Assembly: GCA_965198235.1 (NCBI GenBank)
Contig: OZ240248.1
Location: forward strand, 1,216,001-1,280,000
Length of the DNA stretch: 64,000 nt
DNA from: Candidatus Poribacteria bacterium
Lineage (GTDB): Bacteria; Poribacteria; WGA-4E; WGA-3G
Direction of reading: 5' to 3'
Numbering within the stretch: position 1 is the stretch's first letter; every line of letters starts with the position of its first letter. The notes beneath the pieces were generated by a model. That model ran no database searches and was not told where the DNA came from. It worked only from the letters and a program-made list of their open reading frames with translations. Below, one piece after another: positions 21,453 through 37,128 of the stretch. The position numbers and the translations under genes are program-made.

Positions 21453-22259
21453 TCAGGATTCCTGTTCATCGCTCAAAATCTTATGCAAAGTTGTCGATAA
21501 CGCGATCAACGTCTTCACTCGATCATCGAAGTAAGCTTCTGATGACATAGCCAAATCCTGTGCCTTCTGAACCGCTTCCGCTAAACCCGCAATCACGGAC
21601 TCTGTTGTTGCCGAGTATTCCAACATACGTGCTTGCGCATAAGCAGCTTTCGCTTCACGCCACAACGCTCCATACTTCTGATTCGGCCAACGGCTGTGTG
21701 TTGGACGGAGATAAGAGAACGCACGCTTCCAAATCTTAAAAATAGGAAGAAGATGCTCCCCGGGTTCCCCGACTTCTATCGGAACGCCATCTATCTTCTT
21801 TTCACGCAGTTCAATATGCTGGCGCAGAAACGCGAACTCCGAAAAGTAGTTCACCATTTCGATCAGTGCTTCCTCTGTATCCAGCCGTCGCGCATGACAA
21901 ATCACGATAAACTCACGATGTGTGTCCGTGATCGGTAACACCGCACAGCGAGGGAACAATTCAGAATAAATCCTGCTTTGGCACTCCTCCAGATAATCCG
22001 CGATACACGATGGAACCGTCATATTCCAACCATGCTTATCGCCTTTATATTTCGTCCCGTCATTCGCTATATAAATTTGTCTTACTTTAATCTCACCCGA
22101 TTCATACTTTGCCACCCAATCCCGACGAAAAGCTTCGGTCACTGCTTCAGCACGCGGTCTATGCAGTGCCGCCAGTTCCTTGAAAAAGTCGCAACCCGCG
22201 GGAAGCTGCTTCGCCTGTTCTGCAAGGTCTGTATTCTGTACTACCAAATTCCCATTCAT
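21453..22259 (-). CDS. Hypothetical protein (possibly DUF2280-like C-terminal half)
   Basis: 268-aa ORF with AAGGAGG RBS; YLRPTHSRWPNQKYGALWREAK motif followed by a helical tail. Confidence 0.65.
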   Translation of the reverse strand: MNGNLVVQNTDLAEQAKQLPAGCDFFKELAALHRPRAEAVTEAFRRDWVAKYESGEIKVRQIYIANDGTKYKGDKHGWNMTVPSCIADYLEECQSRIYSELFPRCAVLPITDTHREFIVICHARRLDTEEALIEMVNYFSEFAFLRQHIELREKKIDGVPIEVGEPGEHLLPIFKIWKRAFSYLRPTHSRWPNQKYGALWREAKAAYAQARMLEYSATTESVIAGLAEAVQKAQDLAMSSEAYFDDRVKTLIALSTTLHKILSDEQES

Positions 22260-22826
22260 CTGAAGTCCTCCTTCTGCATTGTTTATCGTAAAACCTGAAA
22301 GTCCGTAAACACCTCAAAAAACAGTAGTCCCGTCCCTTTCGCTGACGGGGTTGTAACCCCAACCATCCTTCGTAATGGAATACGAATTAAATAATTACTA
22401 AAATTAAGTTAACATATATGCAAATTCTACCACAAAACTATTTTTCTATGCAAGCATTTTAACCGCAAAAATCCGTTTTCACGGAGAACGCCTCTTTTCG
22501 ATACTGGGAAGCCAGTGGTCCCGTGCTACGAGAAAAACCTCCGTGAAGCCTCCGTGAATTGCCACTTTTCTGATGGTATAAATCTTCTCACAAAACCACA
22601 TTATCTCGTAAACGTCCCAATCTACTGCCATTTGCTGACGAAGGGGACCCACAACCTTTGGAGGCGAAACGCATTGTAAACAAACGAAATAGGTAAACTT
22701 AACACTACGAAAGACGTTAGATATACAGGAAACCCAAAATCCGTGAAATCTGTGAAATCTGCGAGAATCCGCGATTCAGACAATAGTTACTACACATCAC
22801 CGGCATTGGAACAGTTCAAAAAACAT

Positions 22827-22856
22827 TTGACAACCCCTTATGGAATATGGTATCAT
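22827..22856 (+). promoter_or_regulatory. Promoter of the ileS leader
   Basis: TTGACA-18 nt-TATCAT with extended -10 TG. Confidence 0.6.
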
Positions 22857-22948
22857 AATTAATAGGGATACGTTTTAGCCGAGTCTGAGAAAAGACTCTG
22901 CATCTACAACGACATCACACATCGTTCAAACGAGGCATAGACAGAAAA

Positions 22949-23086
22949 ATGCTTACTACACCGACATCGCAAGATAAGGAATCTGTGCGCTGCAACACCC
23001 CAAATCACGACTGCCTTGGGGCTGTCACGGGTTCGCGCGCCATATCCATTATTATTATTGCTATTCGTCGTGCTGTGGTGGGCTAA
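22949..23086 (+). CDS. Ile-rich leader peptide of ileS (45 aa, ...RAISIIIIAIRRAVVG*)
   Basis: ATG 22949 to TAA 23086; six Ile codons in eight positions (ATA TCC ATT ATT ATT ATT GCT ATT), upstream of a terminator and ileS. Confidence 0.8.
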   Translation: MLTTPTSQDKESVRCNTPNHDCLGAVTGSRAISIIIIAIRRAVVG

Positions 23087-23114
23087 TCACGAGCAGATAA
23101 GAAGTTTCTATTAC

Positions 23115-23162
23115 AACGCCCATCACTGAAGCAGACGATTTCAGTGAGGGTGTTTTTTATTT
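23115..23162 (+). terminator. Attenuator terminator upstream of ileS
   Basis: AACGCCC(A)TCACTGAA-loop-TTCAGTGAGGGTGTT followed by TTTTATTT; its 5' arm is also complementary to GTGGTGGGC (23075-23083). Confidence 0.8.
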
Positions 23163-23298
23163 AAGATGCCCTGCATGGACGTAGGTCCAATCAACTAAAA
23201 TTCGCGCAATCCGCGATTCAGACAATTAACATTGCACATCACTGACTTAAATTCTTAATCTTCATTAAGGAAAACGGCTTACGCCGAGGAGATGCCAC

Positions 23299-26200
23299 AT
23301 GACAAACCGCTCTAATCGAACGCTTGGCGACCGTATGGAAAAAATGTTTGGAGAGGTATCATCCCAATTCACATTTGCTGAAAGAGAAAAACAGATTTTA
23401 GAGTTCTGGCGTGAAAACGACATCTTTCAGAAGAGTATGGAGATGTCCAAAGACGCGCCGTCGTTTGTTTTTCTGGAAGGACCACCGTTTGCGAATGCAC
23501 CGCCCGGTGTGCACCACGTCCTCGCACGTATCATGAAAGATGCTGTCTGCCGTTACAAGACGATGACGGGGCATTACGTCCACCGTAAAGCAGGCTGGGA
23601 CACGCACGGACTTCCCGTTGAATATCAGGTCGAAAAGCAACTCAATATTACAAACAAAGCCGAACTGGAGGCTTACGGCGTTCAGAACTTCATCGAAAAG
23701 TGTAAGGAGAACGTCTTCCAATACGAGCAGGATTGGCGGCAGATGACCGAACGCATCGGATTCTGGGTCAATCTCGATGAAGCCTATATCACGTTGTCGA
23801 ACGATTACATTGAAAGCGTCTGGTGGGTACTCCGACAAGCGTGGGAGAAAGAACTCCTGTATCATGGACATAAGGTGCAACCGTATTGCTATCGGTGCGG
23901 CACAACCTTAGCGAGCCACGAAGTCGCGCTCGCTTACCAAGAGGTCGCCGATCCATCTATCTTTGTTCGCTTCCCGCTGAAAAATCGGGAGAATACCTAC
24001 CTCCTCGTCTGGACGACAACCCCGTGGACGTTGCCTTCTAACGTCGCCGTCGCTGTCGGTGAAAATTACGATTACGTCGCCGTTGAAGAAGGTAACGGAC
24101 AACACCTCATCCTCGCAAAAGAGTGTATACCCAGTTTATTCGGAGAGGAAACCCCGCAAATCGTCGAAAACTATAAGGGCAGTGACCTCCAAGGGTGGGA
24201 ATACGAACCCTTGTTTGATGGCGGACAGCATCCGGAAAGATCCCACTACATCGTCACGGGTGATTTCGTGACGACGACAGAGGGGAGTGGCTTGGTTCAC
24301 GTTGCTCCCGCTTTCGGACAGGATGACTACGAGATCGGACAGAAATACGGTCTGCCGCTCGTGCAATTAGTCGGTCCCGACGGTAGATTTGTCCCAGAAG
24401 TTAAAGACGCTTGGGCGGGTGAGTCCGTCAAAGACGCTGATCCAAAAATCATCGAAAACTTGGACGGACGTGGACTGTTATTCAAGGCTGCCGAGTATAC
24501 GCACCAATATCCGTTCTGTTGGCGGTGTGATACCCCGTTGCTCTACTATGCCCGCGAATCGTGGTTTATCCGGACGACCGCCATCCGAGATCAGATGCAT
24601 CAGCACAATCAGCAAATCAACTGGTACCCGGAGCATATCAAAGACGGACGTTTCGGCAATTGGTTAGAAAACAATATCGACTGGGGATTGAGCCGTGAAC
24701 GCTATTGGGGCACCCCCTTGCCGGTCTGGGTGTGTGACGACTGCGGACATCAGCACTGTGTCGGCAGTATCGCCGAATTGCAGGAACTCGGGACCGATGT
24801 GCCAGATGATATTGAACTACACCGTCCTTATGTAGACGATGTTGTCCTCGCGTGCAAGAAATGCAGCGGCACGATGCATCGCGTGCAAGATGTCATTGAT
24901 TGCTGGTTTGACTCCGGCTGTGCGCACACGGCGCAGTGGCACTATCCCTTTGAGAACAAGGAGATGCTGGAGCAGGCGTATCCCGCGGATTTCATCTCCG
25001 AAGCCATAGATCAAACCCGTGGGTGGTTCTATAGTCTCTTAGCAACCGGCACACTCCTTTATGACAAACCCGCCTACAAAAACTGCCTCTGTCTTGAACT
25101 AATTATGGGACCCGACGGCCAAAAGATGAGTAAAAGTCGAGGCAACACGGTGGATCCGTGGACAATTCTAAACGAACAAGGTGCCGATGCGATGCGCTGG
25201 TATATGTTCACCGCAACCACACCGTGGACACCACGCGCTTTCAAACCAGAGGGCATTGATGAAGCGTTGAAGAAGTTCATGGGAACCCTCCAGAACGTCT
25301 ATAGTTTCTTCGTCATGTACGCCAACCTTGAGCAGGTCGATGTCCTGCAAGATACACCGCCTGTCTCGGAACGCGCCACAGTAGACAGGTGGATCTTGTC
25401 TCGCCTCCACACCCTCATCGATAAGGTGCGCGACGAGATGGAAAATTATCATCTCACGAATGCCCCGCGCGCCATTGAGACGTTTGTGGACGATCTCAGC
25501 AACTGGTATGTCCGCCGCTCCCGCGATCGCTTCTGGGGCGCGAAAGCCGGACCTGACAAGCATGCCGCATACGCCACGCTTTATGAGGTCCTCGTAACCG
25601 TTGCGAAACTCGCTGCACCCTTCGTTCCATTTTTGGCGGATGAACTCTATCGTAACTTGGTGTGTTCGCTGAATACTGAGGCACCCCTCAGTGTTCATCT
25701 TGCGAAGTATCCCGTTGCGGATGCCGCACTCAAAGATGCCCAGTTAGAAGCAGATATGGATTTCACACGCGGAGCGATTAGCATGGGACATGCCGCCCGC
25801 AATCGTTCCGGCATTAAGACGCGCCAACCATTGGCAGAAATCACCCTCGGTGGGCTCTCCGATGCAGAGAAAGCGACCGTAAATCGTTTGGCCGACCTCA
25901 TCCACGATGAACTCAATGTCAAAGCGATCGTCTTCACAGAGGAATTGAACGCTTTCGCACAGGTGACACTCAAACCCAACTTCAAGGTATTGGGACCCAA
26001 GTATGGCAAGGGCGTGCAAGCCATCGCCAAAGCACTCGCTTCCGTAGACGCAGTCGCGTTGAAAGCGGAGTTGGAAGCCGCGGGAAGTTTGCAAGTTGAA
26101 GCATCGGGAGAGACATACACCCTTGAGCAGTCCGAAGTTGATGTGCAGACCCAGAATCGAGAGGGTTTCTTTGTAGAGGTAGACGCGAAGAAATTCGTCG

Positions 26201-26490
26201 CATTGTCAACGGAATTGACACACGAGTTGACGCTGGAGGGCTTGGCGCGCGAGTTTGTCAATAAAATCCAGAATATGCGGAAGGAAGCGGATTTTAATAT
26301 CTCCGATCGGATTAAACTCAGTCTCAGTACCACTTCTCCGCTTGTGGGTGAGGCGTTTAAGACCCATCGAGACTATATCCTCCGCGAGACACTTACGACT
26401 ACAGTCGTAGACGCTCCGGGTGAAAATGCCTTTACCCTCGCGCAAAAACTGAACGGCGAACCCGCAACCTTGAGCGTTGAGCAGGTTTAG
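23299..26490 (+). CDS. ileS: Isoleucine--tRNA ligase, type 2 (IleRS2) with GVHH signature
   Basis: EGPPFAN-APP-GVHH, GWDTHGLPVE, WTTTPWTLPSN, DWGLSRERYWGTPLP, DQTRGWFYSL and KMSKS; type-2 C-terminus EGLAREFVNKIQNMRK; 1063 aa. Confidence 0.97.
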   Translation: MTNRSNRTLGDRMEKMFGEVSSQFTFAEREKQILEFWRENDIFQKSMEMSKDAPSFVFLEGPPFANAPPGVHHVLARIMKDAVCRYKTMTGHYVHRKAGWDTHGLPVEYQVEKQLNITNKAELEAYGVQNFIEKCKENVFQYEQDWRQMTERIGFWVNLDEAYITLSNDYIESVWWVLRQAWEKELLYHGHKVQPYCYRCGTTLASHEVALAYQEVADPSIFVRFPLKNRENTYLLVWTTTPWTLPSNVAVAVGENYDYVAVEEGNGQHLILAKECIPSLFGEETPQIVENYKGSDLQGWEYEPLFDGGQHPERSHYIVTGDFVTTTEGSGLVHVAPAFGQDDYEIGQKYGLPLVQLVGPDGRFVPEVKDAWAGESVKDADPKIIENLDGRGLLFKAAEYTHQYPFCWRCDTPLLYYARESWFIRTTAIRDQMHQHNQQINWYPEHIKDGRFGNWLENNIDWGLSRERYWGTPLPVWVCDDCGHQHCVGSIAELQELGTDVPDDIELHRPYVDDVVLACKKCSGTMHRVQDVIDCWFDSGCAHTAQWHYPFENKEMLEQAYPADFISEAIDQTRGWFYSLLATGTLLYDKPAYKNCLCLELIMGPDGQKMSKSRGNTVDPWTILNEQGADAMRWYMFTATTPWTPRAFKPEGIDEALKKFMGTLQNVYSFFVMYANLEQVDVLQDTPPVSERATVDRWILSRLHTLIDKVRDEMENYHLTNAPRAIETFVDDLSNWYVRRSRDRFWGAKAGPDKHAAYATLYEVLVTVAKLAAPFVPFLADELYRNLVCSLNTEAPLSVHLAKYPVADAALKDAQLEADMDFTRGAISMGHAARNRSGIKTRQPLAEITLGGLSDAEKATVNRLADLIHDELNVKAIVFTEELNAFAQVTLKPNFKVLGPKYGKGVQAIAKALASVDAVALKAELEAAGSLQVEASGETYTLEQSEVDVQTQNREGFFVEVDAKKFVALSTELTHELTLEGLAREFVNKIQNMRKEADFNISDRIKLSLSTTSPLVGEAFKTHRDYILRETLTTTVVDAPGENAFTLAQKLNGEPATLSVEQV

Positions 26491-26888: not shown

Positions 26889-27767
26889 ATGCAAGATTTT
26901 TCCTATGTTGCCGCGCAAACGGTACCGGAAGCCGTTGCCCTGCTTGACGAAAAAGGAGAAAAAGCCCGCATCTTGGCGGGTGGAACTGATCTCATTGTTC
27001 AAGTCCGGGAAGCACGCCGAGACGTTGACTTGATGATTGATGTCAAATCCATTCCAGAGGTGAACGTCTTAGATTACGATGATAACGCTGGCTTAACGCT
27101 CGGTGCTGCAGTCGAATGTTATAAAATTTACGCCGTTGATGCCATCTGTGATGCCTATCCCGGTTTAATCGATGCAACCAAAATTATTGGTGGCACCGCG
27201 ATCCAAGGACGTGCTGGCGTTGGCGGTAATTTGTGTAACGCCTCACCCGCTGCGGATTGCATACCGCCGCTGATTGTGCTTAATGCCACATGTGTCATTG
27301 CCGGTCCAAACGGCGAGCGTGAACTACCTGTTGAAGATTTCTGTACGGCTCCGGGGCAAACCGCTCTGGAAAAAGGCGAGATGCTCGTCTCTCTGAAGAT
27401 ACCAGCACCTGCAAGCAATTCCAGTTCTTTCTATCTCCGGTTTATCCCGCGCAATGAGATGGATATCGCTGTCGTTGGTGCCGGAGCGTCTGTGACACTT
27501 GATGATGCGAAACAGACAATTGTCTCTGCTCGCATTGCACTCGCTGCTGTCGCACCCACGCCGCTCTTTGCTGAAGAAGCGAGCGCGCTACTCGCAGGTC
27601 GCGAGGTTTCTGATGCCGCAATTGATGATGCCGCACAAGCTGCGCAAGCCATCGCACGCCCGATTAGCGATATGCGTGGTACTGCCGAGCAGCGGACACA
27701 CCTCGTCGGTGTGCTGACTCGGCGCGCACTCAACGGCGCAATCCAGAGAGTCCGAGACGCAGCATAA
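26889..27767 (+). CDS. Xanthine dehydrogenase family FAD-binding (medium) subunit
   Basis: LAGGTDL, GGNLCNASPAAD and PISDMRGT motifs; AAAGGAG RBS. Confidence 0.92.
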   Translation: MQDFSYVAAQTVPEAVALLDEKGEKARILAGGTDLIVQVREARRDVDLMIDVKSIPEVNVLDYDDNAGLTLGAAVECYKIYAVDAICDAYPGLIDATKIIGGTAIQGRAGVGGNLCNASPAADCIPPLIVLNATCVIAGPNGERELPVEDFCTAPGQTALEKGEMLVSLKIPAPASNSSSFYLRFIPRNEMDIAVVGAGASVTLDDAKQTIVSARIALAAVAPTPLFAEEASALLAGREVSDAAIDDAAQAAQAIARPISDMRGTAEQRTHLVGVLTRRALNGAIQRVRDAA

Positions 27768-36965: not shown

Positions 36966-37039
36966 GGGCTTATAGCTCAGACGGTTAGAGCGCGCGCCTG
37001 ATAAGCGCGAGGTCCCTGGTTCGATTCCAGGTAGGCCCA
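36966..37039 (+). tRNA. tRNA-Ile (anticodon GAT), CCA not encoded
   Basis: GGGCTTA/TAGGCCC acceptor stem, GCTC/GAGC D-stem, CGCGC-CTGATAA-GCGCG anticodon arm and CCTGG-TTCGATT-CCAGG T-arm. Confidence 0.96.
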
Positions 37040-37128
37040 CTTTTTTCTTTCTCTCCCCATCTCACTTTTACCATCACTCTGTAATCCTATTTTACCCATC
37101 CGCGCACTTATACCGCTCATCCACCAAT

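Follow-up and report, generated by a model that had tools for sequence, protein, structure and literature searches.

A putative isoleucine-codon leader-peptide attenuator in front of ileS in the candidate phylum Poribacteria

The window, i.e., the whole 64,000-nucleotide (nt) stretch of DNA analysed here, stems from a Candidatus Poribacteria bacterium (assembly GCA_965198235.1, contig OZ240248.1, positions 1,216,001 to 1,280,000) and carries ileS, the gene encoding isoleucine--tRNA ligase (IleRS; 23299..26490, plus strand; TIGR00392, 964.9 bits vs. a cut-off of 621.4). Upstream of ileS lies a divergent intergenic space of approximately 1 kb, which is bordered on its other side by a minus-strand open reading frame (ORF; 21453-22259) and contains the segment 22827-23299. 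In a first-pass annotation this segment was read as an isoleucine (Ile)-sensing leader-peptide attenuator controlling ileS, and the promoter, 45-residue ORF, Ile codons, stop codon and terminator listed there are all present where they had been placed.

All elements of the putative attenuator lie on the plus strand. The promoter (22827..22856) combines a -35 box TTGACA (22827-22832), an 18-nt spacer and a TG-extended -10 box TATCAT (22851-22856), which amounts to 11 of 12 consensus matches. It is followed by the leader ORF (22949..23086), whose 45 codons encode MLTTPTSQDKESVRCNTPNHDCLGAVTGSRAISIIIIAIRRAVVG and end with a TAA stop codon at 23084-23086. Six of eight consecutive codons close to its 3' end specify Ile (ATA TCC ATT ATT ATT ATT GCT ATT, 23042..23065), and we refer to these as the regulatory codons. 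Region 2 (23065..23083), the 5' strand of the putative antiterminator, contains the core GTGGTGGGC (23075-23083) and ends at the stop codon. Region 3 (23117..23138) consists of the terminator 5' arm (23117-23130) and the terminator loop and is common to antiterminator and terminator, while region 4 (23140..23162) consists of the terminator 3' arm (23140-23152) and the T-run TTTTTTATTT (23153-23162). The terminator stem (23117-23152) has 13 base pairs (bp) with one bulged A and a predicted stability of -18 to -21 kcal/mol.

The first-pass annotation had proposed that the last leader codons pair with the 5' arm and loop of the terminator. This complementarity exists as described: 23065-23083 can form 18 bp with 23118-23138, with two interruptions and a free energy of -24.6 kcal/mol. 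The proposed scheme is incomplete in that region 2 has two further potential partners. Region 1 (22951..22972), a segment at the start of the ORF, would act as an anti-antiterminator by base-pairing to region 2 and the Ile codons while the RNA is untranslated; in minimum-energy folds, 22954-22972 pairs with 23058-23080. Segment 2' (23086..23098) forms a 12-bp local hairpin with 23067-23079 that places the stop codon in its loop (about -11.6 kcal/mol) and is possibly a pause hairpin or a competitor of the antiterminator.

To follow the leader through related genomes, we aligned the ileS upstream regions of same-genus and same-family genomes (81 units after removal of duplicates). The relatives are 75-90% identical to the window from the -35 box to the T-run; the similarity begins at the promoter and ends at the T-run (query position ~338). 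The promoter pattern TTGAC-N16-20-TAYNMT is found upstream of 78 of the 83 distinct related units for which at least 200 nt are available. A leader ATG occurs in all 81 units, in 78 at a site 12 nt upstream of the window's start codon and in 13 at the inner site used in the window. Only the window and the units L056 and L061 have the inner ATG alone, and in the window the ancestral in-frame start (22937-22939) reads ATA. The stop codon is likewise kept in 81/81 units (TAA in 80, TGA in one). Moreover, each of the 14 distinct gap runs within the ORF has a length divisible by three, as do only 4 of 18 outside of it. The leader peptides comprise 36-50 amino acids; their middle part varies and their C-terminus is conserved (...I-x-I-I-I-A-I-R-R-A-V-V-G followed by the stop). 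Four to seven Ile codons are found among the last 15 sense codons in 79/81 leaders, while the rest of the leader contains 0.7% Ile, and the number of ATT units in the run varies from three to five among relatives. Hence, the comparison that the first-pass annotation had suggested turns out in its favor, and the pattern of conservation suggests that the leader ORF is translated, or at least maintained as a reading frame. The leader's central hairpin varies among the units, 31/81 of which lack part of it.

Because the first Ile codon of the run is AUA, it had further been suggested that the leader might sense the lysidine-modified tRNA. ATA accounts for 19.5% of the Ile codons in the runs vs. 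14.3% genome-wide, and nothing singles out AUA; the idea thus gains no special support, nor do the data speak against it. Besides a single tRNA-Ile(GAU), the genome encodes three CAU tRNAs, and AUA is presumably read by one of these three. The tRNA-Ile(GAU) gene, the only one found by ARAGORN, is located at 36966-37040 (C1:1252966-1253040), about 14 kb downstream of ileS.

Among the same 81 units, the 9-bp core of the antiterminator (GUGGUGGGC:GCCCAUCAC) is paired in 100% of cells. The nine pairs that extend the helix into the terminator loop are paired in 75% of cells only, so that of the antiterminator proposed originally the 9-bp core is retained and the full 18-bp helix is rejected as a conserved unit. 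The terminator helix is paired in 88% of cells. Within this family (f1), the pairing of region 1 with region 2 reaches 93-97% and the local hairpin (23067-23079:23086-23098) 92% of cells, both with no covariation beyond shuffles. The terminator 5' arm GCCCATCAC hardly changes among the units, and the differences in the 3' arm are wobble substitutions. This is the pattern expected of a segment that is doubly constrained.

A wider alignment of 28 Poribacteria lineages, with 500 shuffles as control, is informative about covariation. In the antiterminator helix, 88.4% of cells are paired, a value as high as in none of the 500 shuffles, and its covariation score is likewise reached by 0/500. Kinship among the sequences can beat shuffles on percentage and score, and the counts of changed pairs and pair types are the safer measures. 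Both sides change in 6 of 11 pairs (16/500 shuffles), both sides are changed in 18 cells (0/500), and 17 further pair types occur (4/500). When the partner columns are slid by one to three positions, 34-62% of cells pair. The terminator helix (regions 3 and 4) covaries likewise across the 28 lineages. Furthermore, in 17 genus-level lineages the upstream segment binds the terminator arm of its own leader with a mean of -17.1 kcal/mol vs. -15.2 kcal/mol for permuted partners (0 of 20,000 permutations as low), and in 12 of the 17 lineages the cognate pairing beats its own shuffles at 1 in 200 or better. These sequence comparisons support an antiterminator helix that covaries across the phylum and whose formation would exclude the terminator.

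The distance between terminator and gene links the element to ileS. Of 76 distinct relatives, 17 have no more than 33 nt between the T-run and the conserved start codon (ATG) of ileS, and 24 have no more than 60 nt. A spacer of 33 nt or less leaves no room for a separate promoter and, thus, transcription of ileS must pass through the terminator in these genomes. Spacer lengths range from 13 to 623 nt among relatives and from 18 to 60 nt in most other lineages. The spacer of the window (23163..23298; 136 nt) is not conserved; it is largely a copy of an interspersed repeat (23208-23242) and includes the ileS ribosome-binding site. In the sister genus g9 (two genomes, L134 and L135), the whole leader and the terminator are lost and a homologous promoter (…ATATGGTATCATAATTA…) directly abuts the ribosome-binding site of ileS. 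Contigs assembled from RNA libraries (four runs of one study), which carry no information on RNA ends, strand or levels, may include DNA carry-over and prove nothing where they lack coverage, include leader sequence and continue across the terminator into ileS (X1 record 4, 23053-23547; X5 record 7, 23051-23239; also X5 record 8 and, from a relative, X6 record 14). The start of ileS itself is ambiguous. Position 23299 gives the longest ORF and is preceded by a good GAGGAG ribosome-binding site. The ileS genes of all relatives begin at an ATG equivalent to 23344 (MF[EG]EVS...), which in the window is without a clear ribosome-binding site.

We also modeled the folding of the growing transcript with the ribosome footprint masked, placing its leading edge by assumption 13 nt beyond the first nucleotide of the codon in the A site. 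If that codon specifies Ile, the local hairpin is the minimum-energy fold until the terminator 5' arm emerges. The antiterminator (8-18 pairs) then prevails while the transcript end lies between 23126 and a limit of 23142-23150 that differs among the Ile codons, and the fold flips to local hairpin plus terminator only after the complete 3' arm has emerged. With the ribosome at the stop codon, the terminator alone can form. In the model, the alternative folds thus behave as the first-pass annotation had anticipated, and the spacing fits stalling: a ribosome on the regulatory codons would leave region 2 free, and a ribosome at the stop codon would mask it.

Taken together, the conserved frame and Ile run, the spacing that leaves no room for a promoter in many relatives, the covariation across the phylum and the geometry of stalling support the original reading, and we regard a classical ribosome-mediated leader-peptide transcription attenuator of ileS as the probable function of this element. 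Transcription would start at the promoter at 22827-22856 and a ribosome would translate the 45-codon leader. If Ile-tRNA(Ile) is plentiful, the ribosome would pass the Ile codons, reach the stop codon (23084-23086) and cover region 2 (23065-23083), allowing the terminator (23117-23152 plus T-run) to form, and most transcripts would end near 23160. If insufficient IleRS activity, for instance, leaves little charged tRNA(Ile), the ribosome would stall on the six Ile codons at 23042-23065 and leave region 2 free just ahead of it. Region 2 could then pair with the terminator 5' arm as soon as the latter is made, the terminator would not form and RNA polymerase would continue into ileS. In untranslated RNA, region 1 (about 22951-22972) would hold region 2 and the terminator would form. 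Ribosome stalling and its timing relative to RNA polymerase are the parts that we infer. The most likely outcome of this putative circuit is that a low level of charged tRNA(Ile) raises the production of the synthetase.

The layout is not confined to the family of the window. An IleRS of the window's type is found in 129 of 176 genomes of the phylum (E up to 1e-60), and nearly all leaders sampled from other genera, families and classes share the order of promoter, short ORF, segment ending with (G/A)TGGGC, and terminator. The 5' arm of the terminator starts with GCCCA in nearly all Poribacteria lineages sampled, 26-53 nt past the (G/A)TGGGC segment, and an ORF reaches or ends beside region 2 in nearly every lineage. 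At least four Ile in eight codons are found in 11 of 20 genera, spread across 7 of 9 families. Clear Ile runs are present in the leaders of genus g4 (MLTITVIISSVLISIIILIDGGQKA followed by the stop) and family f6 (...IEIIAIIIIIRCSVMG...) as well as in families f10 (...IINIIIIIRLLYSVVG...) and f11 (...DDIIIIRLLQTMVG...), which belong to a different class from the window. Even the sister families f2 (genus g5; L153, L156) and f3 (L154, L155, L157), whose IleRS is only 38-47% identical to that of the window, have the same kind of leader. The f2-g5 leader (FIGIAISIIIIP followed by the stop) ends just before region 2, and the f3 leader reads IGIISIIISIPSCDGG.... In L156, the Ile leader lies ~840 nt upstream of ileS with repeats inserted between the two. 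In genus g4 the segment GGTGGGC is read in another frame than in g1 (GAT GGT GGG vs. GTG GTG GGC), which indicates that the constraint acts on the RNA.

These distributions allow a tentative evolutionary scenario, which we consider possible rather than probable. The ileS attenuator might be an ancestral, phylum-wide switch (at least nine families, two divergent IleRS forms) that was later re-tuned by ATT-repeat slippage, by loss of the Ile run in families f5 and f8 and by deletion of the leader in genus g9. In f5 and f8, the ribosome may sense something else. The f5 leaders, e.g., ...RIYIFLFWLSYFYALGLFRVVGRLKGS followed by the stop, are rich in Phe, Leu and Tyr and have strong ribosome-binding sites and no Ile run. 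If the scenario is true, the phylum would offer a natural series in which to study shifts in the sensitivity and the signal of a leader-peptide sensor. One leader of genus g4 (L129, genome G027) differs from those of two sister genomes by insertions of 2 nt and 10 nt, through which a stop codon follows the ATG and the frame with the Ile run has no ATG of its own; an assembly error could account for this, or else the leader is decaying. Upstream of the ileS leader of a family f6 lineage (L143:208-439) there is a sub-threshold match to the Rfam HEARO RNA (67.7 bits vs. a gathering threshold of 83; E 2e-12), which is unrelated to the attenuator.

Several observations weigh against an Ile-sensing attenuator. 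In nine of the 20 genera, namely g2, g7, g8, g10 and every genus of f5 and f8, leader ORF and switch are kept with only one to three Ile in the best eight-codon window. The lineages with few Ile codons that keep the ORF, region 2 and a GCCCATC terminator are L140-L142 (f5), L147-L152 (f8), L044, L045 and L131 (g7), L040 (g8) and L039 (g2). Within the window's own family, the Ile run is degraded in L099 and L117, the leader ORF has no good Shine-Dalgarno sequence, and none of the four helices shows covariation exceeding shuffles among the 81 units, the sequences being too conserved. At the level of the phylum, the cognate pairing is no better than that of shuffled sequence in 5 of the 17 lineages. 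In the full transcript at equilibrium, local hairpin plus terminator (-33.0 kcal/mol) are more stable than the antiterminator (-24.6 kcal/mol), even with a stalled ribosome; hence, the decision must be kinetic, as in classical systems. One RNA-library contig (X1 record 2) already starts in front of the promoter, at 22752. Finally, a terminator-anchored genome scan for runs of one amino acid in short upstream ORFs, which considered the first ATG only with fixed thresholds and can therefore miss cases, yielded no second convincing leader-peptide attenuator.

The few-Ile lineages also argue for the idea that the switch is real and read by a ribosome and yet gauges general translation capacity or transcription-translation coupling, with the Ile run as a lineage-specific refinement. 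The retention of ORF, region 2 and terminator in these 9/20 genera and the strong ribosome-binding sites of the f5 leaders are in line with this idea. We nevertheless consider it unlikely, given the four to seven Ile among the last 15 codons in 79/81 leaders of the window's family and given that the controlled gene is always ileS. Ile runs in 7/9 families, including f10 and f11 of a different class, make the run look ancestral. Moreover, the trp leader manages with two or three regulatory codons, which also counts against a general sensor. Alternatively, the helix might be chosen without any ribosome, by a protein such as IleRS itself or by a tRNA that binds the leader RNA, and the ORF would be incidental. 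The GGUGGGC and GCCCAUCA motifs are indeed conserved phylum-wide beyond the needs of pairing, and other synthetase genes are known to be autoregulated via their leader RNA or controlled by tRNA-sensing T-boxes (the latter in PMC1262725). We rate this mode of action as improbable: start, stop and frame of the ORF persist through 14/14 in-frame indels, an ORF reaches or ends beside region 2 in nearly every lineage, the central hairpin is variable and partly deleted in 31/81 units, and neither a T-box nor any further Rfam family matches the leader of the window with E up to 10.

A very improbable explanation is that the unit constitutes an independent small gene, for a small protein or RNA, delimited by a promoter and a terminator of its own, and that ileS is transcribed from a separate promoter. 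The 136 nt between T-run and ileS in the window contain a weak promoter-like site with 9 of 12 matches (23226-23253); the C-terminal peptide sequence is, in addition, highly conserved. However, this spacer is not conserved and contains an interspersed repeat in the window, it shrinks to 33 nt or less in 17/76 relatives, and in genus g9 the same promoter drives ileS directly. The middle of the peptide is variable, and g4 reads the sequence of the conserved end in a different frame. An independent small protein was rejected on a further count, as the leader peptide matches no Pfam or NCBIfam family.

Leader-peptide attenuation as proposed for the Poribacteria ileS leader follows the classical design shared by trpL and ilvL. 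The closest case on a synthetase gene, by analogy, appears to be pheM-pheST of E. coli, a leader-peptide attenuator before an aminoacyl-tRNA synthetase gene in which low charging of the cognate tRNA raises expression. Both systems place a short leader ORF rich in cognate codons, an intrinsic terminator and an antiterminator that competes with it in front of the synthetase gene. The Poribacteria leader differs in the amino acid (Ile instead of Phe) and the phylum and has no sequence similarity to pheM-pheST. It is also longer (36-50 codons), with the Ile run at its 3' end and region 2 inside the ORF. In ilvL (ilvGMEDA) and ivbL (ilvBN) of E. coli, stalling on branched-chain codons including Ile selects between terminator and antiterminator, and stalling on Ile codons is proposed to make the same choice in the Poribacteria leader. 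In contrast to ilvL and ivbL, which sense several amino acids for biosynthetic operons, the latter would control a synthetase with an Ile-only run. For pheST, leader-peptide attenuation is mentioned for gamma-proteobacteria in PMC1262725.

The same paper places ileS under T-box control in Firmicutes and Actinobacteria. Gene and logic would be the same in the Poribacteria leader, since poor charging of tRNA(Ile) leads to more expression via alternative helices. T-boxes bind uncharged tRNA directly without translation, whereas the Poribacteria leader has a conserved ORF and no T-box match. Specifically, a T-box riboswitch (RF00230 clan) was rejected because no covariance model matches the leader of the window or ten other Poribacteria ileS leaders, and the Rfam leader families (Thr, Leu, His, Trp, Phe and similar) were rejected because they gave no covariance-model match either. 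No Rfam match is found in 22300-23500 at E up to 10, and the ten other leaders have no T-box or leader-family match at E up to 0.1. By sequence, the putative attenuator is thus a separate, uncurated family.

The implication of the first-pass annotation that an ileS leader ORF is without precedent does not hold. An "ileS leader CDS" of Caulobacter crescentus, CCNA_03934, is named in the accessible part of a ribosome-profiling study, where it served as a negative control, and a leader peptide before trpS is shown in the same part (Schrader et al., 2014; PMC4117421). As far as that part goes, the Caulobacter ORF is similar to the Poribacteria leader by name and position only, i.e., as a small translated ORF before ileS. 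Apart from this mention, our literature search returned no description of an Ile-codon leader peptide controlling ileS, though Lopatovskaya et al. (2010; Mol Biol 44:128), which by its title deals with attenuation of aminoacyl-tRNA biosynthesis operons, may predict such elements. The search likewise returned no description of RNA-level regulation in Poribacteria, and "Poribacteria" combined with "riboswitch" gave only unrelated work.

The leader also stands out from its genomic background. The 306-nt leader folds with z = -3.46 and none of 100 shuffles folds as well. Around the 2,089 terminator-like sites of the 5.17-Mb genome, the ileS leader is the single short ORF with six Ile in eight codons; the remaining Ile hits of the scan have four in eight, and Ile makes up 6.3% of codons genome-wide. 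The leader unit is present once in the genome, and the further matches of that search are copies of the flanking interspersed repeat. A short ORF outside the window (C1:533165-533221, minus strand; MPKKSKEALLLLLLLPLC followed by the stop) has seven Leu in eight codons, adjoins a terminator-like hairpin and is maybe a Leu leader. The interspersed intergenic repeat consists of three to four tandem units of ~11 nt ((A)ATCCGCGnn) ending in ATTCAGACAA. It has 58 genome copies at up to two mismatches, vs. none for a reversed control. Two copies (22737-22785 and 23200-23242) lie on either side of the attenuator unit and take up the spacer between the unit and ileS, and in relatives other short repeats occupy this spacer. 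As for the neighboring genes, the divergent ORF at 21453-22259 has no Pfam match, and the gene after ileS (26889-27767) encodes a flavoprotein subunit of the molybdopterin dehydrogenase/CO dehydrogenase family (PF00941, E 6e-42; PF03450, E 2e-25).

The mechanism proposed here is known and does not represent a new principle; what is new is a well-conserved case of it from an uncultured phylum, with ileS as an unusual target. The analysis assigns a specific and testable regulatory mechanism, which we consider probable, to an essential gene of an uncultured, sponge-associated phylum. It would also add a well-supported example of leader-peptide attenuation on a synthetase gene, beyond biosynthetic operons and pheST. 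Furthermore, the variants found across the phylum, which differ in the number of Ile codons and in the position of the stop codon before or after region 2 and which include loss of the Ile run and of the whole leader, may serve as ready-made mutants for studying how such a sensor is tuned.

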